A stretch of DNA of 64,000 bases from Eremomyces bilateralis CBS 781.70 (taxonomy: Eukaryota), in NCBI GenBank assembly GCA_010015585.1, contig ML975153.1, one strand, 5' to 3'. Below, piece by piece: positions 1,040 through 38,206 of the stretch; position 1 is the stretch's first letter; the number at the start of each line of letters is the position of its first letter. The notes below the pieces were generated by a model that was not told the DNA's origin, searched no databases, and saw only the letters and a program-made list of their open reading frames with translations. Both the position numbers and the translations under genes were made by a program.

Positions 1040-1820
1040 CAGGGAAGTTTGACAGGTGATAGCTCGAGAGATACCCCGGAAATCTACTACTTACATCACC
1101 GGCCTGTCAAAGACGGAGAAAGGGAGCACTGAGCTTTTGATTATCGTAGACCGGTTAAACAAAGGAGCAGTGTTCGCGGCCTGACCTAACGAGCGAAACG
1201 TCAGTCGAGACGTTCATCGAGCATTACCTAGCGCACTGCGCCTTACCAAGAGTAATCACATCCGACAGACGAGACAAGTTCGTCAAAGGAGTCAGATCGC
1301 AGATCTGCAAGCTAGTGAAGGTAAAGCAGAGGCTGTCAACCGCCTATCATCCAGAAATAGGTGGATCTACCGAAAGAATGAATTAGAATGTCGAAGACTT
1401 CGTACGGCATTTTAGTACATATAGGCAAGACGATTGGACACATTGTTACCCTTCGCCCAAGTCGCGATTCTCGGAAGAACGACAGTGGCAACCGGCATGA
1501 GTCCCTTCTTCATTACGCACGGCTACCATCCGTATTTGGGAGATTCAACCGGTTTCACAAGGGCTACAGACAACAAGAGTCCACCTAAGAGTCCGGCAGC
1601 AGCAGCGGAGATGAAGATGAAGAAGTTCCACGAATGCGTTGAATTCGCGCAAGCCGCTATGGCTACGTCCCAGCAGAGATAACAAGACGTGACCAACAAA
1701 CGACGCGACCCAGCACCAGCATATCAGACGGGGGACAAGGTGTGGCTCGACGTGCGGAACATCAAGTTGCCAGACAATTGGAGGAAAAAGCTAGCGAGAC
1801 TGCATGAGCAGTTAGAGCAA
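1040..1820 (+). mobile_element. Degenerate Ty3/gypsy integrase relic
   Basis: Broken frames give LLIIVDRLNK, LPRVITSDR, QRLSTAYHPEIGGSTERMN, TGMSPFFITHGYHP and RRDPAPAYQTGDKVWLDVRNI, which are typical gypsy integrase core and C-terminal motifs. Stops and frameshifts are present. Confidence 0.85.
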
Positions 1821-2601
1821 CTGAAATCATTGGGATTAGCGCATGCCGCCTGAATGTGTGTGAGAGAGAGAGAAAGAAAAGGGAGGAGACTATTCCGCAT
1901 CACGATCCTTGGATTCCCAGAAGGCGGTGCGCTCATTCATGCGAACGGATGAGGCAGCGCAAGGAGTAAGAGGTGTCGATGGAAATGATGGTTGACGCTA
2001 GGTGCGAGGGATTTGGGGAAGAGAATCATTCAGTGGATGATAGCTGTCGACTTTCGAGTAGGTCTTAGCGCTTGCTCTTATAACGGATCCAGAAGTCGCG
2101 TGTTCGTTCATGCGGTGGATCTGCTAGGCCGCATATTCATACGAAAGGAGGGAAGAGGCTCGCCCGCTACTTCGGCTGCCGGTTCCATCCCTAACCGCGT
2201 CCACGCCACAGCCCCTGGGCAGCGTGGATAGGTAGTTCTGGGCTGTTCTGGATGGCGAGCAGCGCACCGGAGGCAGGTCAAGGAATAAGCGAGGCCAGGG
2301 AGGGAAAAGAGAAAGCGCAATGAAAGCAAATCGATTGATCCGGATACTGGGACTCTGTGATTGTCTATTTCCCTTAGGTTGGAGATTGGCGTACATAGGG
2401 TGTTTCCCTTCCATCATTTCGTCGTATCAGAACATCTTTCATGTAAAGAAATCAGCAAATTGAATTTCAGATCTACTCCCAATGTCGTTTAAAAAGCGTG
2501 AAAGATCAACTGAGATTGAGCACCGTAGATCAGAGGCTGCTACGGCCCGCCCCCCAGAGCTTGCTTCGCTTCACCGGATGCCAGTAGTCGGAAGCGATTC
2601 A

Positions 2602-3560
2602 TCAACGTGACGGGGGCGCGAGATTTACCGGCTCTTGGATCTGGAATTCTTTAGTGACCTTAACCCACTCCTCGCCATACTCCTTTACGAGACGCAGCAG
2701 TAGGGAATCTTCCGCAGAAGTGAGGGCTACACGAAGGTTCCTCCGTTTTTGCTCTAGCTCTGGTATGAAATTCAAATCGAAGTCGTCGTCGCTAATGTCC
2801 TCTAGTGTGGAGAACTGACGTTCCCTCGCCACCGGTGAAGCGGCCGATACCGTAGCCAACGCTTCCACGCGGTCAAAGATATCCCGAACCATATCCATGA
2901 GGGCCTCCTGGTTCCCCGATATCTCGGACTGCGTCTGAGCGTTGCTGCGGATCGCTTCCAGCAGCTCCGGTAGGCTCTGAACCAGGGTTTGGTCTTGCGA
3001 AGCATGTGCATGGAGACTGTGGCCGTCCTTCAGTGGGGAATCCGGTGGGGCAGTGATCCTAGGTTCTAGCTCCAGCGAGGGCGAAGCGGGTAGCGAAGGT
3101 GACGGAAGACGGTCGACCAAAGTCAAGGGAGGCGGCGTAGCTTTCTGTTCGACGTATCCGGTTAGCTGAATAGAAAAAAAATGGCGACTCTATCCCCTTA
3201 CCCAGGTGATCAGGGGAGACGCCGGCGTTGGCGACTGCGCCGGAAGACGCCTATGGAAAGACATCTCCAGGCCAGAATACTGTACGACGATATGGTCTCT
3301 AGGTGCGAGGCGGAGTTCCTTGCGAATAAATTCCTCGACTCCGTGCGGATCTGGACAGTAGATGCGGAGGATGTTGCGCCATCGTCTAGCTCTGACACGT
3401 AGACCGTCACATCCTCTTCCTTGTTTGGAAAGCGAGTATTGAGAAGGTCCTGGACCTGTTGCGTGAAAGCTACTTTGACCCTTATACCCGCTTTGCCGGT
3501 CTCTTGACAGATGGATGTGTGACTCGGCGCCAGCCCCTACGTCCTCGCCCCTTCGTCGGC
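2602..3560 (-). pseudogene. Degenerate gene: unknown conserved domain, then an intron, then a Pro-rich linker and a Myb/SANT-like C-terminal motif
   Basis: The exon at ~3200-3500 (TRFPNKEEDV.../ILRIYCPDPHGVEEFIRKELRLAPRDHIVVQYSGLEMSF) ends at GTAAGG. The intron has GCTAAC...CAG. It joins ORF 2602..3126, which ends in LTSAEDSLLLRLVKEYGEEWVKVTKEF (Myb-like helices). A frameshift and a stop lie upstream. Confidence 0.55.
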
Positions 3561-4101
3561 GGGTTATGGTTGATCAGAGGGAATCGAGTGGCCGCCGTTT
3601 CCCCTAAGTGACGACCGCTTCTCAATGGATTCACCGATACGAAAGAGTACCTTGTATCCTGCGTTCATGCGTTCATGGAAGAAGCTCCACCGTCGGTCGA
3701 TGTCCCCTGTGATTGTGGATAGCCAGTCGGCGGGCCACGGCTGTTTAAGTAGAGAGAGAAACGAGTGGCCGTCGGTCCTCGATCGGCGATAGCATGAATG
3801 ACTGACATATTGAGGGAGCCGGAAGCCGTATCTCGGTTCATGCGTTCATGCAGGGTGGAGCGAAACCTGTTTGGGTTTTTGTTGGGACGAGGGGAGATTG
3901 GAAGGATCCGAATTCATGGTGTGGTAGTCGGTGGACGGGCGGGAGGTTTCGATGGATGATGGTTATCGTGAAAGATTTCGGGGATGGATGGGTTACGAAC
4001 AGACGGCGCTATACCTGGTCGGGCGGCGCTAAACTCAAGGAGGGAATTAACCAAAACTTCACGTACAAAGTTAAATATTTACAATAAGCTAGGACAGGTA
4101 T

Positions 4102-4327
4102 TGTCGCACGTGATGTGCTAAAATGGTTGGGAGTGAGGTGCTGTTGTTCCAGCAGCGAAGTTGTTGTATTGTGTGTTGTGTGTAAGTTGTGTGTAAGTTG
4201 TGTGTAAGTTGTGTGTTCTAGCTGAATGCCTGGTTCCCCGGCCCTACAGATATACGAGAGTCACGGCAAGATTATTAATGCAGTTTGTAGCCTTGGACTC
4301 CTAGAGCTCATGCCTTGGCCTGCGACA
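4102..4327. mobile_element. Solo LTR (226 bp)
   Basis: TGTCGCA...TGCGACA inverted termini with a perfect 5-bp TSD GGTAT (4097-4101, 4328-4332). It contains an internal (TTGTGTGTAAG)x3 tandem repeat. Confidence 0.85.
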
Positions 4328-4346
4328 GGTATTCCCCGGATTTCAC

Positions 4347-4797
4347 GTTTACTATGGTTACAGGCAAAAGTATTGTTAGCGCGGCGCTAATTAGGGGTCT
4401 AGCCTAAACCGTTTTGTTCATTCTTCCATTACTAATTAGATATAGATTTCACCATCTATTAGCCTGCTCATTCTCCGGACCCCAATCCTATTGAGACAGT
4501 ATGGAATTGGATGAAGGGCTGGATCCAGGACCACTATGGGGATGCCTGATTATATTATGACCAGCTTCAGGAGGGAATTAACGATGCTTGGGAGGCTATC
4601 AGAGGAATTCGTGTAAGAGTTGTCGAGTTGATGGGCCAGAGATGCCAGGATGTGATAGGCGCAAATGGAGGCTATACACGATAATGAAATCTATATCCAA
4701 TTAGTAATGGAAAAAAGAACAAAAACGGTTTAGGTTGGAAACTCCTGCTTAGCGCCGCGCTAACAATACTTTTGCCTATACAGTAACCATAGTAAAC
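4347..4797 (+). mobile_element. Internally deleted, non-autonomous Tc1/mariner element
   Basis: About 105-bp imperfect TIRs (GTTTACTATGGTTAC...GATATAGATTTCA and its reverse complement). The interior encodes the transposase C-terminus PAHSPDPNPIETVWNWMK...RCQDVIGANGGYTR with an internal stop. Confidence 0.88.
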
Positions 4798-5194
4798 ATC
4801 CAAGCCTCGGCCTGTATGTGGGGCATCCGGGTGCAAGGGCGGGAATAAACTCTACCTCGAACTCGGAGTCGGTCCCTAGCAACTTGTACGTACCAACAAG
4901 CGATGCTAGCTTATGATCTTCATTCGGGTGAAAGACGACTCCGAAAGATGTTTTCGGCTCGGATCTGAGGCGCTGGGTCATGCGTAGCACGAAGCAACAT
5001 AAAGAACGGAGTCACATTTGGCACGTTCTTCCAATTCCTTGATTTAGTGTATAGATCGACAGCACTCATTTCTTTCCCCGCGAAACCTGATTGATACCTC
5101 TCCAAGATAGCTACCATCGAAGTTCGGAAGTAGTCTTCCAACCCCCCAAGAGCCAATTGACCTGCTGCCGTGTCCTGCAAGACATATAACAATC

Positions 5195-7869
5195 ATGGGC
5201 GACGATTCCGATCCTCCCTCGTCATCTCATCCTACTCCACCAGACGTTGACCTGCTCCGCAACAATGCCACCCTCCACCCCTCCGGCTACGAAGAGGTCC
5301 CGTCCAAAGCATCCATCCTGCCGCCCGAATCGCCGTCCGATGTCTCCGTTATCGACATGCCCGATCCACCTGAGGCCGATGCGCCGGATCGGAACCTCAT
5401 CGAGCGAATGGCGCGTTTCCGTTCGACGCCCCTCTCCTTCCTCCGGGAAGTCAGCCTCCACGTTTCTGGTACCGGGTGGCGGAGCTATGACAATATCGTG
5501 GGGCAGCCGGTGTTCTATCCCGGGTTCAGCGAGAAGATGAAGCAGAGCGTATTGTCGAGCCCGATGTTACAGGCGAAGGTGGAGGAGTTGGCGGAGAAGA
5601 GGGTGAGGGTTGAGGAGGGGGAAGGGCGGTGGGGACTCGCTGTAGACGAGGGTCAGAAAAACTATACGGGTAGCACGAAGAGGGATAGGAGAGAAAAGAG
5701 GAAGAAAGACGTTCAGCAGAGTCTGGAGCAGGTGCTCGAGAAGATGACTGAGGACATGATTGCCAAGATGGAGGGCAAGCGGTTCATACGTGGAGCATAC
5801 TACATGGTCACACAGTTGTTGACGCGAGCATATCACCAAGGTAAGCTTTTTCCAATGTGCATGCTCTCTCTAGCTGACATCCAACCCGCGAAGGCATCCA
5901 CGTCTCCTCCGAAGAAATCGTCCGCCTCCGTAAAGTCGCAATCGAAGCTCAGAAAAAGAAACAGTCCATCATCTTCCTCCCCTGCCATCGTTCTCATGTC
6001 GACTACGTCTCATTGGCAATCATCTGCTACCGTCTCGGCCTTACTCTACCCGTGGTCGTGGCGGGCGACAACCTCAATTTCCCTCTCGTCGGTCCGTTCC
6101 TGCAAAGTGCTGCAGCGATGTGGATCCGACGGTCGTTTGGGGACGACCAGCTCTACACGACGCTCGTGCAGGCATACATGGACACTCTGCTTCAGCAAGG
6201 ATTCAACTTCGAGTGCTTCGTCGAAGGCACGCGATCGCGAACCGGAAAACTGCTCCAGCCCAAGTTCGGGATCTTGGGCTTCCTTCTCGACTCCGTACTT
6301 TCGGGCCGGGTTAAAGATGCCATCATCTGCCCCGTCAGCACACAGTATGACAAGGTCATCGAAGTAAACAGCTATGTCTCCGAGCTGCTGGGGCAGCCGA
6401 AGCAAAAAGAGAACCTGATGGACTTCCTCTCCGCGTCATCCATTCTGAGCCTCAGACTGGGGCGCGTCGACGTCCGTTTCCACGAGCCCTGGAGCCTTCG
6501 ATCCTTCATCGACGACCAGATGGCGAGTTATACCAAGATGCCGCCGCAAATGCCCACTGAGCCGAATGGGAAGGACACGACCCGGCTCCGGTTGCTTCGC
6601 ACGCTCGGTTTTAAGGTCCTAGCGGAAATCAACGAAGTGTCGGTCGTCATGCCGACTGCATTGATCGGCACCATTCTCCTGACATTACGGGGACGCGGCG
6701 TTGGAAAGAGCGAGCTAGTCAGGAGGGTGGATTGGCTGTGCGCACGCGTCAAGTCCCGAGGTGGGAGAGTTGCGCATTTTGCTGGACTCCCAACGGAGAC
6801 GGTCGTCGAGCGCGGGCTGGAAGTTCTGGGACCGGAGTTGGTCGGGGTCGTCTATGGCCTTGTGGAGCCGACGTTCTATGCGGTGGATCGGTTCCAGCTT
6901 TCATTCTATCGTAACATGACCATCCATCTGTTCGTCTCGGAGGCCATCGTGTCGGCTAGTCTATATGGCCGAGTAAAACTCGGCGGTGGTCTCGAGCACC
7001 AGCGCATGCCGTTTGAGGAGCTTCGTGATCAAGTTCTGTTCCTCTCGCAGCTCTTCCGCGGGGAGTTCATCTTCCCGACCGACGGCCTTGAAGCGAACCT
7101 ATCCAAAACGCTCCAAGGGCTCGAGCAGGATAAGGTCATCCACATCGTCAGGAACCAGCAAGATCCGTCGCAGATTGAGTTCGTGGAACTGAGCGAAGAA
7201 GAGCGGGACCAGGGACGCGAGAACTACGACTTCTACTGCTTCATGATTTGGCCATTTATCGAAGCCAGCTGGCTCGGTGCGGTATCTCTCATGGCGCTGA
7301 CGCCTCCATCAGGGCAAGGCGAGGATATGTGGCTGGACATGAAGAAGGTGCAGGATATGGCTCAACTGGTAAGTGAATATTGAAAAACTCCCTCAGCTCT
7401 TCGGCCGATAGCTAACGCGGGCACCCAGCTCGGTAAAACCCTCTACCATCAAGGCGACCTCTCCTACTTCGAAGCCGTCAACAAAGAAACCCTCAAAAAC
7501 GCCTACCAGCGCTTCGAAGAAGAAGGCATCCTCCTCGTCGCCAAATCCAAAGACGCCCGCATCCCCACCACCGTCCGCCTTGCCCCTGACTGGGTCCCGC
7601 CACGCGCCCCCTCCAGCAACCACCTCCTCCCCTCCGGCCGCCTCTGGGCGTTTGCCGAGCACATTAGCCATAGCCGACGTGAAGGGAAGAATCGGCGGGA
7701 CGGGAACACGGTGCGAACGCGGGTGCTGGGGCTGGTGGAGCTGGTGGCGGAGAGCTTGTGGGAGCATGCGCGGCCGGCGGCGAGTCCGGAGAGTAAGCCC
7801 GGGGCGTATGAGAAGGTGAAGCAGCGGCGGCCGAGAAGGGCGATTGGGGAGGGGAAGGCGAGGTTGTAG
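5195..7869 (+). CDS. Glycerol-3-phosphate/dihydroxyacetone-phosphate acyltransferase (PlsB/GNPAT-like), probably peroxisomal
   Basis: join(5195..5840,5894..7368,7429..7869). HRSHVD (HX4D), AMWIRR and FVEGTRSRTGK acyltransferase motifs. Ends in GKARL* (PTS1). Confidence 0.9.
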
Positions 7870-7986
7870 GATGGGCGGCGGCTGGGGCGGGTTGTTCGGG
7901 TAGATACATTTAGATGATATCCCTGGATGAGCGTTCGGGCATGGGCATTGATATAATGGAGTCCGCAATGAATATATTCAGGCTAC

Positions 7987-8264
7987 TGTTATGGTCCCGG
8001 GCCCGTGGCCTGGGCCCTTGAGTATGGCTGACGCCACAGGGATGTGGCTAGTGGATGGCATGGAGGATTATCAAGGATATAGTCATATGGGAGCTATGTG
8101 TTAGGACGGAGCTGTGTTAAGGAGCTGTGTTGAACTGTGTTAGTATAGTAGAGAGAAGAGTTTATATCTCGCACACAGGCGCTGGGAGATTTCTTCCTTC
8201 TCTCTCTTCTGTTTAGATTAATGGAACTTGGTAATCGCAGATCTTGCGCATCCAGACCGTGTCA
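7987..8264 (+). mobile_element. Solo LTR, family shared with 13325-13585
   Basis: TGTTATGG...CCGTGTCA termini. Flanks GCTAC/GTTAC are a TSD with one mismatch. It matches the reverse complement of 13325-13585 along its length. Confidence 0.85.
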
Positions 8265-9900
8265 GTTACGGCCCATAATCACAGCAAAGAGCTAGATGCA
8301 AGCTTGGTTTGAATGCGAGGACAAGACTTAAACACCAAGGACTACGGAGTAGTAGGTTTCAAATTTCTTCGCATCCTGGCTCTTATCCCTAACAGAATCG
8401 CCAACCCAATGCCAAAAATAGCAGTTGGACAGCCATGGATGGATGCGACTCGGATGAAAATGAGGTATTATGTAACATACCTAGCTAATTAATCCCTACG
8501 AAGTAACATTTTACTATTAGGACTCCGCATGTCGTATGGATTAGGACACCAGAAGTGCGAACACCCCTGCAGCAGTACCGGGACACCGGACGAACTGCTT
8601 CCAGTGAACACAAGCCAACAACCTAAATCTATCGTCTGCCTTCTACGACATTGACCAACACCAGATCAAATCTAAGCGAACCACGCTTGGGATTGCACAA
8701 GAAAGATGAGGAAAAGAGAAAGCGATCCAAATCTGCAGTCCTGGTCGAAGGGAATTACCAACACCCTGCTCGGTGACAGAAGAAAAGCGCTCGAAGGATC
8801 GGTTTACTGTTTATCCCATGTCCAAATTATTTTTGGAACGTCAAGCTACTATGTATGCTCAGTGCTCAACAATGCTCAGGGATGTCGGGTGACCGGAAGG
8901 CGGAATGCCATTGTCTTATATCTTTTCTTCTATTGGCATTGTGATTTTGTTCTGCATCGAGATGGGCGGCATTGTCGGCATCACGATCTGATATGCCGAG
9001 TCTATTGGTGGCGTCGGCCTCGTATTTCCGACTAATCATCTCCGATTCTGGTCTCTCTCGCAGTCCCTGCCTCTGGTGTGCCTGCTGCCCCGTGCCCCTA
9101 TCCCCCACATGTACGCCACTGCATAGTCGACGTTCACCTCATATCCTCGTTGTCCTCATGGTATCGCTCAACAGTTGAATGTCGTCATTCGACAACTATC
9201 GCTTTACTATCCATTTCAATTGCGGTTCGTCATTTTCATCTTTAGATGTCTTTGGAAGTTTAAAGTGGTCTACGGGAGATCGTCAACACCAGCATCTGCT
9301 GTTACCCGATAAGGCCGATATCTTTCACAGATCGCTCAAGATCTGGCGCGGAATGCGACTACAAGGAAACACACAGCATCGAAAGGTGAGGATCATGAGG
9401 TGCATAGGAATCCATACGCAAGAGGCTTGGATCTTCCTGCTAATCCGACAGCCAAGGGGGGTGGCTGCGACTAATAATCACAGTCAGCGTTGCAATCTCG
9501 TAATTATGGAGTCCATCGTGACGACGGCCCGGAGTGGGCGTCAATCCGATCTCCCCCAGGCCCACACAACGGTGGGCGAACACTCCCTCCCTCCTCGCGC
9601 TCCCCTCCATGCCAGGGCGAGGCAATACGAAGTTGATAGTAAAATTGCACCTCTTTTCTGCAACATTGTCTCTCCTCATCGGTCCGCGTGACGTCGCTGC
9701 TTAAGAGCGGTAGCTTCCCCTGTTTCTTGTCGGTCATAGGTGATGCTCTAAGCGGAAGTCAATCGTTTTCGAACTCTTATAGAATCATACATCCAGCTCC
9801 GAACCAGCAGTCACTCGTTTTCTATTTCTAGTCAAGTCATCTATTTCGCACTATATGGTAGAAATTACTGTTTTATTCTTAATTTCTACTCGTCTTTAAG

Positions 9901-33424: not shown

Positions 33425-34002
33425 CGTGCTAGAGGCATTCGGATGCGAGGATATGGTTGAGATTTTGTAGTAAAGGTGAACGCAGGACGAAAGTTTAGAA
33501 ACAAAGGACAATGGTGTAGTTACGGGATAGAGAAGTACTGGGGCAGCTTTAATCTCGAAGTGTGATATCACCAAGATCATGACCCCACCATCCCGAAATC
33601 GTGGGGGAGTCGGGGTAATCCCTGTGAGTTAGTTGACAGGTGGTGACGGATATGTAACCAGTTATCAAGGGTCAGCGCCACGGGTTATGGCGCGCCAAGG
33701 CCGCCTGATAACCCAGCCTCTCGCGCCAGCGACCGCAGCGCTGCCCCCTTGATATACCACTTATCTGAAGGCCTTCGCGGTGGCTGGGTTATTGGCGAAG
33801 ACATGGCGCAGCGTTAAGCCCTTTGCAGTAAAGCGTCGGTGGAAACGATCGCTATATACGGTATAGCTGTGACTTGGTGGCGCTTAGCTCAGGCATTTCT
33901 TCCCCCTCCCCTCCTTTCGCGATAGAACGAGCCATTCGCGATCATACAGATGAATAGTTTACTCGAATTATCCCCTACCTACCGCCATTAGACCGTGAAG
34001 AA

Positions 34003-36334
34003 ATGCCTCCTAGCTCGCAGCTCTCTATAGAGCATGCGATCGAGCTGAACAGCCGTTTAAATGCCGCGACACAACGAGCCCTTGCAACGCCAGATGGCAG
34101 AGTAACGAGTACGAGGAGAATATATGAGCCACGACAGCAAGAGTTTATTGTGAGAAGCGCTTTCGTACGGGAAATCCAACGAAGGAGGAGGCTAATTCGG
34201 TTAGGCGTGGTGCCAGAAGAACCAGTGCAGCGACGGTATACTCGTTACCAGTGCCAAGATTACCCTCTTTCTAGAAGAAGAGGTTATCGGTCGCATCGCA
34301 AAGCCGACCCGGCCAGGCCGGAGGCTGAAGCAGCCTTGTACGGACACGGATGGCAATCCGATCGTGCAAACGCTCGGAGCTCGATCGATTGAAACGTACG
34401 TTTCTGCGATTATGGAGCTGTGGAAAGTGCAGCACAGCCTTGCTCAGAACCAAAATGTCCCCGTCCGGTCGTACGCGTTGAAGCAGCTGCTGCAAAAGCG
34501 TAAGATGGCCGAGGCGGCCCGCAAGCGAGAAGAGTACGTTGATCGCGGTGCTGGCACACTGCTCGACGGCTATTCGGAAGAAGAGTTCGTACGATGTATA
34601 CGAGGCTGCTGGCAGCCCGAGGCGTCTGAAACGTCCGTCCTGGCAGGCCAGAAAAGAAAGCGAGAGAGACCGACATCGCAGGCCTACAGCGGATGGCTTC
34701 GTACGGCAGTCGATCTCCTCTTCTCGCATAACATGTTTCTGCGTGGGGAGACTGTACGAAACGGAGAACTGCCTGATCTCTTCGCCGTCCCGCTGCAGAA
34801 TGAAGGAGCAACAGATTGCCGTGTTCTCTGTATGATTGTAGACAACGGGAAGACAAACGCCTTTGGAAAGCTAGAGTACGGTGTTACCGTACGACACAAG
34901 GAGCATTGGAAATGTCTAGTCTCTCAGTTGGCGTTCTACCTCTTCTTCCGCTGGGACCTTGAGAGAGAACCGCCGCCGACCTTCAAGCAGCGCTCGGATT
35001 GGTATCGTACGAAGATTTTGAAAGGTGGCCAGAATACCCATCCTCTCTCGTACGCTACTCAGCTGCAGTGGGTCAATGGGATCTTTGACCGCTGTGAGGT
35101 CTCGTCATACAAGAAGACGCATGCCGGACGAAAGCAAGGTGCTCAGCATGCGGAGATGCTTGGTGTCAGCGAATCTCAGATTCAGAGAGCGGGACGATGG
35201 AATTCGGATTCCATGTCGAATGCATACCTCAGCCATATTCCCCGAAAGTTCGTACGAGCAGCCGCTGGCTTCCCTCCCAGCGGCCGAGGAGACTACTTCA
35301 TTCCGCGAGCACAGATCCTGCCTCCTGAGACGCTCGTACGGAAGATCTGGCCATGGGTGGACGAGTGGATCGAACGGTTCCAACAGAATGAGAACACGGT
35401 GCGTGATGATCACCAGTTAGACGAACAGGATGAGGGAGATCGGAATGACCTTGCTGGAAAGGCCTTCCTCCGGCTACTTGATTATCTTCGTACGGTGCTT
35501 CTTCAGGACTCCGTCCTAATCCGCGATGAGTTTCCACGCCACCCTCTCTTCCAGCATCCGATCTTCTCTGATCCGGAGTACCTTGACTTTATGCGGAGGA
35601 TGAGGCAAACTCTTGCTGCTGAAGTGGTTCCACCGCAAGATGTACTCGTACGACAAGCTGTTCCGATAATTGCAGATCGATTGAGTGTGATGGAGACCAA
35701 TCTTGGACAGAGATTACAAGAGATGTTCGACTCTCTTCGTACGGAGCAAGGCCGTCAGCGTACGGTTCTAGATGGTGTATTCAGTGGCAGAACACCTATT
35801 TACCTTAATGTGGGACACTCATCCTTACTCCAGGATCCATTTCCAGCGGTTCGGACGGCCGCTCCCGGCACGAGAATACCTTCAACGCCGGTAATAGAAA
35901 CTCCGGTTTCTATCGCACGCTCCACTCCGACTACCTCTTCGGCTCCGCCGCTATTGGCTATTAGCCCTTCTACCGTACGACCGCTACCTGATCGACCGAT
36001 AAAAGAGAATGGAGAGCCAATCTATACTATGTCTCGTACGGTAGAAACTGTTGGTCAACTCTGGCGAGAGTGGTTTGAAGGATTTGCACCTAATCCTTCC
36101 GTACAAGCGTTAGAGTTAAGGTATGGCGCCTTATGGCGACAGAAAGATTCAGAGAAGACGTGGTATAGTCGTAGAAAAGCTATTATTGATTATATCCGTG
36201 TAGTATCTGAGGCGAAGAGAATACCAGCTCTGCTTGCGGTAACACGGTTGGAAGAGGTACGTACGAGATCAAAGTGGAGTCTACATCATCTCTACAAGGA
36301 GATTGCTCAAAAAAAGAGTAATCTACTTGGATAA
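34003..36334 (+). CDS. Crypton tyrosine recombinase (Ndc10 domain-2-like YR plus C-terminal GCR1_C DNA-binding domain), 758 aa
   Basis: join(34003..34149,34205..36334); the intron GTGAGA...GCTAAT...TAG joins the frames. Catalytic set R (LRGE), K (GKTN), HxxR (THAGRK), W (GRW) and Y (NAYL) is intact. GCR1_C signature MSRTVETVGQLWREWFEG...PSVQALELRYGALWR...YSRRKAII. Confidence 0.9.
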
Positions 36335-36403
36335 GCTCTAAGATTGATAGAGGAGGTGCTTGTACGATAATAAATTAATTTGGAATCAAGCAGGAGGAAG
36401 TAA

Positions 36404-36597
36404 AATGAGGAGGATCAAGAGGATCAAGAAGAGAAGGAAGGGGAGGAGGAGGAGGAAGAGGAGGAGGAGAAGGAAGAGGAGAAGGAGAAGGAAGAGGAGA
36501 AGGAGAAGGAAGAGGAGAAGGAGAAGAAGGAGGAGGAGGAGGAGGAGGAGGAGGAGAAGGAGGAGGAGAAGAAGAAGAAGAAGAAGGAGAAAGACGA
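36404..36597 (+). repeat. Polypurine (GAG/GAA/AAG)n tract between the two convergent element genes
   Basis: About 190 bp almost entirely A/G, with 15-bp AGGAAGAGGAGAAGG-type periodicity. Confidence 0.9.
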
Positions 36598-36905
36598 GAA
36601 GCCTCGTACGAAGCGCAAAGTTAGAAAGATTCAACTTTCAGGCCCTGTAGAGCGAGCGAAAAGGCGTCGGAATTAAACAAAGGAGTTTTTAGACGTATCA
36701 TTATATTCCAATTATAGCGGATATCGTACGAAACTTTCATTAATTAGCATATACCTATAAAAGATCTGTTTAGTTTCACCGTACGGTTACTTGTCTTGAA
36801 CTCCACGTAGAGGAACAGATTCTGTCTAAGTACTATCAACAGCCCTGATAGCTAGGATGCTGCCAGTGCTAACATAGAAAGAGACCTTACGAAATTGAAC
36901 TTACA

Positions 36906-36947
36906 TTAATCACCTAGAAGGGTTTCACTTGAATCCGACCGTACGGA

Positions 36948-36978
<31 letters not shown>

Positions 36979-37463
36979 GCATCCTCGTCGTTATTCTCCT
37001 CTTCAGACGATTCTTCGTCCGAAGAATTATCCCAAGAGCAGCGCGTACCGTGGTCACGCCACTTACAATTACCGCAGCAATCACTAAAGTGAGCGATCGC
37101 ACGGCGGCACTCGGGGAAGGGCGTCAGGCCGCGTCGTACGCATTCAGTGCAAGCTGTCGGCGCCGCTGTCCCCCGGGATTGGATAAGGATGGCGTTGATG
37201 TATGACGGGCGGTGGCTTAAGATCTGCCCAGCCGATATCCGGTTGCGTACGAACCGGACGTGGACGCCGGGACCGGTAGCAAGAAGCTCCCGAGGCTAGG
37301 GGGAGTGGCAGAGAGCTACAAAGATGGGGTTACCCCTAACCTGCAGCGTACCAATTCCCGGAGTAGGAGGACCTACCGCCGCACCGTAGGTACTATTAAA
37401 CAAAACAAGAGCCCTAGGAAGATTAATACCCGTACGGAGTGGAAATAGATCAAATGCTTACAT
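36906..37463 (-). CDS. DUF3716-like Cys-rich protein with an acidic tail (169 codons, one in-frame TAG)
   Basis: The ATG is split by a 48-nt intron (AT|GTAAGC...TAG|G, 37414-37461). Translation: MALVLFNSTYG...CHSP*PRELL...RPSYINAILIQSRGTAAPTACTECVRRGLTPFPECRRAIAHFSDCCGNCKWRDHGTRCSWD, then poly-Asp/Glu. The TAG is at 37296-37298. Not in the ORF track. Confidence 0.75.
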
Positions 37464-38206
37464 CTTCGAACGTTGGAGAGCACTGAAGGAAGAAAGAGAG
37501 AGAGAAAGAAAGGAGGAATCGAGTAGGATAGAAGCATAGACTTATAACGACACCTTCCTTAGTCAAATGAATCACTCCTTCCTTACGAATTCCTATTTTA
37601 GAAAGGGAAATTTCCACCTACGTACGAATTTCTATCTCAGAAGGCCCATCCTATTGTACTGTACCTTGGGTAGTCGGGATTTCAATATGACAAGGTTGAC
37701 TTTAGTTACTTGATACTTATAAGTCGATATGACTAACAGCTTACCGTACCTACTGTTGTTGTTATTGCTGTTGTTGTTGGTTAGTATAGGCAATGAGAGT
37801 ACCATTTCCGCGATGGTTGTTATGTGTGAAGAACTAGGGTCTTGGCATTTTTGCCTAATAACCCAGGCCATGACGCGCCAAAATTCCCCTTATGATATGT
37901 CCCAGTTAATGGATGCACACGCTCTGTGATACTTCGCATTGCGTTGTAATTCGGTTTTATTATCGTACGGTAAGCACCAGACTTTGTCTCAAATAGATCG
38001 AGGTAGAAGATGTGGCTAAACGGTGTGTATGAGGGAGCAATTATTATATCAGATGGCTAAATCAGCTACCACGAACAATGGAGGTCAAGCAACGCAAACA
38101 TAAACGCCACATCGCTTGACATGGAACCTGTCTCAACGAGCCCCATTCCAACCCAATTCAAACATCCACCGGGTATAATCATAATCAGTTATGTCTAAAA
38201 CGGGTA

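Follow-up and report, generated by a model that had tools for sequence, protein, structure and literature searches.

The stretch analysed here (hereafter the window) comprises 64,000 nucleotides of contig ML975153.1 of Eremomyces bilateralis CBS 781.70 (GenBank assembly GCA_010015585.1), and at positions 33658-37908 it carries a CryptonF-type tyrosine-recombinase transposon of 4251 bp. The element is inserted in an intergenic region between a Memo-like gene, upstream of which it lies at about 235 bp from the start codon, and a UvrD/Srs2-like helicase gene, and it contains two convergent genes, a plus-strand recombinase gene and a minus-strand gene for a DUF3716 protein. We consider it likely that this is a single intact CryptonF insertion between the Memo-like and the Srs2-like gene, and that its joined ends rebuild the core site of a wider family. 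For comparison, 80 related loci from metagenome contigs (given as L numbers) were used, among which multi-copy families with differing flanks were sought. The two ends and the recombinase gene consist of the following features:

33649-33657, plus strand: left flank GATATGTAA, which repeats the right-end GATATGT and which we interpret as belonging to a chromosomal pseudo-site
33658-33664, plus strand: first copy of the direct repeat CCAGTTA, the presumed crossover region, corresponding to AGGTATC in L060 and followed by TCAAGGG up to 33671
33663-33671, plus strand: left arm TATCAAGGG, of the TATC-AAGGG type
33682-33714, plus strand: left subterminal motifs GGGTTAT-GGCGCGCC-AAGGCCGCC and ATAACCC
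33746-33771, plus strand: internal palindrome-like site CCCTTGATA-TACCACT-TATCTGAAGG, located some 85 bp inwards of the left end and with a spacer of 7 bp
33786-33792, plus strand: further left subterminal GGGTTAT
34003-34149, plus strand: recombinase exon 1, 49 codons, ending in ...YEPRQQEFI
34150-34204, plus strand: recombinase intron of 55 nt (GTGAGA...CTAAT...TAG), with splicing predicted from the sequence
34205-36334, plus strand: recombinase exon 2 including the stop codon, with the NDC10_II tyrosine-recombinase core and the GCR1_C DNA-binding domain
37837-37881, plus strand: right subterminal motifs GGGTCTTGGC-N6-GCCTAATAACCC and ATGACGCGCCAA
37886-37901, plus strand: right end CCCCTTATGATATGTC, with the order C-run, GATA, TGT, consisting of the right arm CCCCTTATGATA and the spacer start TGTC
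37902-37908, plus strand: second copy of CCAGTTA and right boundary, with ATGGATGC as the sequence outside

The predicted splicing results in one open frame of 758 codons, and the relatives P0005, P0010 and P0019 have the N-terminal motif YEPKQxEW. In the 640-residue open reading frame (ORF) of the long exon, Pfam detects NDC10_II with an E-value of 5.8e-70 and GCR1_C (PF12550) with 2.4e-22 at residues 538-617. The residues R111, K147, H237, R240, W263 and Y272 of this ORF are invariant across an alignment of 26 sequences, and the R-K-H-R-W-Y set is therefore intact, as the original prediction had it; its spacing is presumably near that of Cre. A sequence search of the PDB with the recombinase gave only a weak match to Ndc10 (E = 0.0038). 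In Pfam scans of five ORFs of the element, only NDC10_II, GCR1_C and DUF3716 exceeded the cut-off, without any reverse transcriptase or other transposase, DUF3435, the domain of the Starship captains, gave no match at E <= 0.1, and the ORF lists leave no space for a further long gene. CryptonF elements were reportedly described by Goodwin et al. in 2003, and several characteristics of the group are found here as well, namely the catalytic residues, GCR1_C in the same protein, short terminal direct repeats (CCAGTTA) and the lack of a reverse transcriptase or other transposase. The element thus is a CryptonF, with conserved lox-like ends, a DUF3716 companion gene and an array of CGTACG sites as its distinctive traits.

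The ends had been described in the original prediction, and all of the quoted end sequences, both CCAGTTA copies and the CCCTTGATA at 33746-33754 are present exactly as described. The same holds for GGGTTAT/ATAACCC at 33682, 33708, 33786 and 37858, four of the nine occurrences in the window (shuffle mean 5.2), which together fall into about 200 bp of terminal sequence, and for ATG(G/A)CGCGCCAA, whose only two positions in the window are 33687 and 37870 (0/100 shuffles). How much of this could have arisen by chance? Some 7-mer common to the two 150-bp end regions is found in 11397 of 20000 shuffles, and CCAGTTA alone is therefore insignificant; a single match of this kind is to be expected also if the terminal repeats and inverted motifs were nothing but a chance similarity around a gene without boundaries at these places. 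Against such an explanation, the two-block repeat GATATGT(AA/C)CCAGTTA, defined as collinear 7-mers at most 3 nt apart, is significant (9/20000 shuffles), the 12-mer ATGRCGCGCCAA occurs in the window at the two ends only, and the cross-family alignments of ends and joined sites that are described below were reached by 0 of 2000 shuffles, which leaves chance similarity hardly credible. The best direct local alignment of the two ends, GCCT(G/A)ATAACCCAG, was matched by 12 of 2000 shuffles, and the best inverted one, TT(A/T)TGGCGCG(C/T)CA(A/T)GGCC, by 11 of 2000. When the ends are joined, the arm CCCTTATGATA matches the complement of TATCAAGGG, which is CCCTTGATA, at nine positions with a 2-nt bulge. 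Directly inwards of both ends there are subterminal motifs of the GTTAT/ATAAC and GGCGCGCC types.

The related families permit a mapping of boundaries by comparison of copies. L059, L060 and L061 are three copies that are 96-99% identical over about 3.6 kb and have different flanks. The two left junctions that could be mapped, those of L060 and L061, read flank followed by AGGTATCGAGGGTC... (AGGTATCGAGGG), and the right ends of all three copies read ...CGCGCCAAAGTG, a C-run and GATATGTG, followed by TTAGGTATCTGACG in L060, TTAGATGTCACC in L061 and CAAGTTAGATAG in L059. L060 carries the 7-bp direct repeat AGGTATC, and it is at AGGTATC that the flanks diverge. In a second family, both copies (L053 and L074) begin at AGGTATCG, and the right end of L074 is a C-run followed by GATATGTGATAG. 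More generally, a C-run with GATATGT terminates the elements in L043, L052, L055, L059, L060, L061 and L074, and L035, L058, L069 and L080 have in common ...GTAGATATACCCTTGATA, ending in CCCTTGATA, with divergence directly thereafter. In case of a further family, consisting of L013, L044 copy A, L040 and L042, only the left boundary is mapped, and the right boundary is a guess because L013 runs off its contig.

The joined form of the L059-L061 family is CCCCCGATA-TGTGTTAGG-TATCGAGGG, in which 8 of 9 arm positions match and GATA and TATC are 9 bp apart, and the joined site of the window element is CCCTTATGATA-TGTCCCAGT-TATCAAGGG, with the same 9-bp GATA-TATC spacing as in L060 and, by eye, L074. 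These joined sites of the window element and L060 align without gaps across the join with a score of 69, while the best of 2000 shuffles scored 53 and none reached the observed value. The alignment follows the pattern GATATGT-N-YYAG-K-TATC-R-AGGGTC, and the base adjacent to the arms varies symmetrically, being TGATA...TATCA in the window element and CGATA...TATCG in the L059-L061 family. The right end of the window element also aligns with those of L060, L052 and L044 copy A (score 50 for the latter) with 0 of 2000 shuffles reaching the score in each case. Subterminal motifs are shared as well, on the left GTTAT-(N0-6)-GCCAAG-CC, of which GTTAT(N0-6)GCCAAG also occurs in the left ends of L003, L013, L044 (twice), L060 and L061, and on the right GGGnCTTGGC-N6-7-GCCTAATAACCC and CGCGCCAAA. 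When only loci with enough flanking sequence were tallied, on the correct side and strand, 6 of 62 loci had the strict left-arm motif TATC[AG][AG]GGG upstream of the recombinase gene (control motif 2/62), and 10 of 45 had the strict right-arm motif downstream of it (control 0/45). The predicted ends thus are genuine ends of the element, and a conserved core site results when they are joined at CCAGTTA.

Where within this site the strands are exchanged can be narrowed down by the flanks. In the L059-L061 and L053/L074 families, the divergence of flanks would place the exchange within TT-AGG, beside the right arm, and since these flanks diverge just before AGGTATC, positions 33649-33657 are by homology to be regarded as flank. 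The exchange point is fixed only to about 5-9 nt, because the right flank of L059 diverges earlier and the L061 repeat is imperfect (see below). A strand exchange in the GATATGT block instead of CCAGTTA, with an element that starts 9 nt further left and an empty site that carries C rather than AA (...GATATGTCCCAGTTAATGG...), would agree with the GATATGT duplication, which is as exact as that of CCAGTTA, with the right flank of L059, which differs immediately after GATATGTG, and with L035, L058, L069 and L080, which diverge immediately after GATA. The left flanks of L060, L061, L053 and L074 speak against it, as all four diverge just before AGGTATC and are devoid of GATATGT, and the terminal repeats of published CryptonF elements correspond to the AGTTAT/TAACT block and not to GATATGT. 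We therefore regard an exchange in GATATGT as unlikely, and continue with CCAGTTA as the crossover region.

Several observations weigh against a single intact insertion with a family-type core site. The arms are imperfect, as they include the 2-nt bulge, and the GATA-TATC distance is 9 bp, whereas tyrosine-recombinase spacers are usually quoted as 6-8 bp (Kojima & Jurka 2011, PMC3212892); the canonical tyrosine-recombinase geometry that had been claimed is thus only roughly reproduced. The right flank of L059 diverges 2 nt before its counterparts in L060 and L061, and the repeat of L061 fits at only 5 of 7 positions. The tips of L013 and L044 copy A, which start with ACATGTCGACG, and those of L006 and L007, which start with ATAAC(C/T).GCGGTTATACC, do not align to the tip of the window element. 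Taken alone, the left end is only weakly similar to that of L060 (29 of 2000 shuffles reach the score), and the strict arm motifs are missing from most related loci, many of whose contigs are truncated. A single copy of the element is visible in the 64 kb of the window. In the 3' region of the helicase gene, 56 bp past the right boundary, there is one CGTACG site (TCGTACGG, 37964-37969), perhaps by chance, as there are eight other sites in the roughly 60 kb of host sequence, or perhaps as a hint on target choice. Finally, the recombinase gene has no 100%-identical protein in the collection searched, the best match being 79%, unlike the helicase neighbor and the DUF3716 ORF, each of which has a 100% match in the same collection. 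A possible reason is that the source genome has this gene masked or lacks an annotation of it.

The single visible copy would also be compatible with an old and fixed insertion, in which the gene is being domesticated in the manner of Ndc10 and Gcr1 or the element is immobile, the ends being relics, and Crypton-derived host genes are indeed documented (PMC3212892). We judge this improbable: domesticated genes such as those for Cbf2 and Gcr1 have lost the catalytic site (PMC3212892), whereas all six catalytic residues are kept here, both ends still fit the family consensus, and the DUF3716 gene and the CGTACG array are as in multi-copy relatives. With its catalytic residues and both ends retained, the element differs from genes of the domesticated Ndc10/Cbf2 and Gcr1 type.

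In line with published work on Cryptons, the following mechanism may apply. The element would excise as a circle with the junction ...CCCTTATGATA-TGTCCCAGT-TATCAAGGG..., in which ...GATATGTC-CCAGTTA is directly joined to TCAAGGGTCAGC..., and recombinase subunits would bind both arms of this joined site. The strands would then be exchanged towards the 3' side of the spacer (CCAGT/TA), the partner being a chromosomal site in which this short sequence is also present, and CCAGTTA would be left at both junctions. The predicted pre-insertion site is GGATATGT(AA or C)CCAGTTAATGG, and its AA form GGATATGTAACCAGTTAATGGATGC, i.e. ...GATATGTAACCAGTTAATGG..., would fit an exchange at CCAGTTA. We infer the circle, the exact exchange points, the arm binding and any present-day activity from the sequence. 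As the chromosomal site also resembled the left half (GATATGT), it would have been a good pseudo-site, but such a likeness of the target to the left half of the element is not general, since the four mapped left flanks are without GATATGT. The likeness of the L060/L061 and L053/L074 left flanks to the element is limited to microhomology of the AG(G/A)T.TC type, so that target choice in the family appears to rest on microhomology, and the site selectivity that had been predicted appears to be loose in the relatives. A chromosomal partner that shares only microhomology argues for an integrase-like system with loose target choice and not for a strict two-site recombinase. That a circle integrates at a short shared sequence is already part of the published model for Cryptons; new are a specific candidate for the core site, including its arms and a window for the crossover, and the conserved subterminal motifs that go with it.

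Some further candidate sites and ends were considered. Palindrome-like sites resembling that at 33746-33771 are also present inside other elements, in L060/L061 about 130 bp from the end (in L060 at about 326-360), in L044 at about 5380-5410 and in L043 at 1228-1290, the last with two perfect copies of GATATG-N3-CATATC. Such sites, 85-130 bp inside the left end, could be regulatory or could serve as a second recombination site. The GATATGTCGCATATC at 1228 had been taken for the left junction of L043, which was dropped, as this site is more likely internal because of its close likeness to the internal site of L044 at about 5395. L003 was examined as a possible circular permutation, and it gives no evidence for a circle because the right-end consensus is not present upstream of its left end. 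CGTACG sites as true element ends were rejected, as the first of them (34164) lies inside the intron, 3' of exon 1, and the ends at 33658 and 37908 fit the family consensus. In L044, positions 1490-8460 comprise two different CGTACG-rich Cryptons head to tail, with the right end of copy A about 100 bp from the left-end motifs of copy B, and one of them may have integrated at or beside the terminal site of the other. The helicase gene that neighbors the window element has its nearest named homologues, at only about 51% identity, in Dothideomycetes and allied lineages of the protein collection, which points to a Dothideomycetes-like ascomycete as the host, with no near relative sequenced in the collection.

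How does the element compare with known systems? The best match is to fungal CryptonF elements such as CryptonF-2_ACap, CryptonF-1_CI, CryptonF-1_MC and CryptonF-2_TS (Kojima & Jurka 2011, PMC3212892), with which it has in common one long gene with tyrosine recombinase and GCR1_C, a size in the range of 3-4.6 kb, short terminal direct repeats and the lack of a reverse transcriptase. The terminal repeats listed for CryptonF elements, ATAACT, TAACTA, TAACTA/TACCTA, AGGTAG/AGWTAT and CAGTAT (supplement 1, PMC3212892), read as the same motif as CCAGTTA or its complement. The differences are that Cryptons are described as being without terminal inverted repeats (PMC3212892, among others), whereas the window element has imperfect inverted arms and subterminal motifs that are conserved across several families, and that it has a second gene for DUF3716 and a CGTACG array. 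The CryptonF of Chlamydomonas reinhardtii, CryptonF-1_cRei, is reported to be active, to end in CACCG, to target CAYCG and to excise cleanly (PMC9977147). It resembles the window element in that it integrates at a short sequence common to terminus and target and inserts near genes and in 5' untranslated regions, the window element lying about 235 bp upstream of the Memo-like start (PMC9977147 for CryptonF-1_cRei). It differs by its crossover motif CACCG/CAYCG and by a host from another kingdom, and its activity is known from mutation-accumulation lines (PMC9977147 for CryptonF-1_cRei). Starships are likewise fungal tyrosine-recombinase elements with short target-derived flanking direct repeats, and a circular intermediate is reported for them in a preprint, but their captains belong to the DUF3435 family and they reach tens to hundreds of kb with cargo, in contrast to the approximately 4 kb of the window element.

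In Cre/loxP and Flp/FRT, the recombinase binds two arms in inverted orientation, and the strands are exchanged in the short asymmetric spacer between them. The joined site of the window element would have the same composition of inverted arms and short asymmetric spacer, but its arms are only about 9 bp long and imperfect, and the spacing is 9 bp and not 8.

The second gene of the element is convergent to the recombinase gene, and related genes lie at the following positions:

36906-37295 in the window, minus strand: main exon of the DUF3716 gene, encoding a cysteine-rich domain with an acidic tail (PF12511, 2.7e-15), presumably with further exons upstream
4293-4916 in L044, minus strand: DUF3716 relative
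about 8587-8871 in L013: DUF3716 relative
about 8123-8284 in L012: DUF3716 relative

DUF3716 therewith occurs as a convergent gene in three CGTACG-rich Crypton families. The ORF of the window element is 49% identical to the ORF at the same position of L044 copy A, and tblastn matches to DUF3716 were, besides the window element, found only in L012, L013 and L044 copy A, all of which are rich in CGTACG; L044 copy B, which is CGTACG-rich as well, gave no DUF3716 match by tblastn. By cysteine spacing and by very weak fold matches, the domain may resemble Zn2Cys6 zinc-cluster DNA-binding domains, which we take as a lead only. The predicted structure has a pLDDT (predicted local distance difference test) of 83, Foldseek with this model gave six rows that are all Hap1, with a best E-value of 5, which is very weak, and VIA-align gave Z >= 2 for only 2 of 48161 chains, Hap1 with Z 2.1 (root-mean-square deviation (rmsd) 5.9, 55 aligned) and Pho7 with Z 2.0 (rmsd 10.0, 56 aligned). 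DUF3716 genes are also located in the REP9 transposon of Zymoseptoria (PMC8232023). No link of DUF3716 to Cryptons was found in literature mentioning the domain, and the accessory genes described for Cryptons are a DDE transposase, a C48 peptidase and a helix-turn-helix (HTH) gene, with DUF3716 not among them.

The second distinctive trait is a dense array of the palindromic hexamer CGTACG, which recurs in several relatives:

34164-37626 in the window: CGTACG array of 25 sites with the consensus T-CGTACG-A/G and a mean gap of 144 bp
5545-9005 in L013: array with about one site per 120-150 bp
1668-8323 in L044: array of the same density
308-2731 in L003: array of the same density
6127-8505 in L012: array of the same density

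The window contains 34 CGTACG sites, with a shuffle mean of 9 for its entire length, and 26 of them lie between 34164 and 37969. The 25 sites of the element compare with about 0.85 expected from its dinucleotide content, which is an approximately 30-fold enrichment. They are evenly spaced, with a coefficient of variation of 0.51 versus 0.94 for random placement (P = 0.0004), and even spacing is also found in L013, L044 copy A and L003 (P < 0.001) and L044 copy B (P = 0.007), and more weakly in L012 (P = 0.05). The largest gap of the array (345 bp) lies within a low-complexity tract rich in GAG/GAA with a 9-nt periodicity (36397-36618) between the convergent genes. In long contigs the sites occur within the Crypton elements only, as in L013, where the initial 5544 bases have none and the following 3.5 kb have 27, and CGTACG is the top enriched hexamer in 12 of 20 element stretches; it is not enriched in L059-L061, L053/L074, L006, L009, L010 and L002.

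In the window element, the sites occupy all three codon phases, and CGTACG encodes 7 of 9 Arg-Thr pairs, 6 of 11 x-Val-Arg contexts and 3 of 3 [SPTA]-Tyr-[VADEG] contexts. Conserved amino-acid motifs are encoded by CGTACG codons in the strongly enriched families and mostly by other codons elsewhere, with single sites in L001, L004 and L030 as exceptions. By its codon usage, the array is kept partly via synonymous codon choice. Literature searches on the motif found no description of a CGTACG array for transposons. A 19-bp cyp51 promoter element that contains TCGTACGA is reported to be repeated up to six times in azole-insensitive Pseudocercospora fijiensis, which is a Dothideomycete (PMC6637983), and because of this promoter repeat TCGTACGR may be the site of a host activator.

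Tentatively, and with more doubt than confidence, the element might have a two-layer cis architecture, in which the lox-like core and the subterminal motifs mark the ends, and the array, which runs through both genes and the non-coding DNA, is a platform for a dimeric factor that coats the element. The factor that binds the array could be the DUF3716 protein of the element, the GCR1_C domain or a host activator. If this were true, the coating could keep the element transcribed and unsilenced, or it could organize or retain the excised circle, and this would be a transposon with a recognition code that marks its whole body and not its ends alone. The DUF3716 companion gene and the dense TCGTACGR array, which we did not find described for Cryptons in literature searches, raise the question of how a transposon marks itself.

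To our knowledge, Cryptons are the least understood eukaryotic DNA transposons; their recombination site is not known to have been defined beyond terminal repeats of 4-6 bp, and reviews describe them as devoid of terminal inverted repeats. The element of E. bilateralis and the related families now supply a candidate site of 30-40 bp, in which the arms are conserved, the spacing is 9 bp and a window for the crossover is given. As this candidate site lies beside an intact recombinase gene, a direct biochemical test of Crypton recombination becomes possible, and the element may serve as a starting point for judging a Crypton recombinase as a eukaryote-derived integrase.

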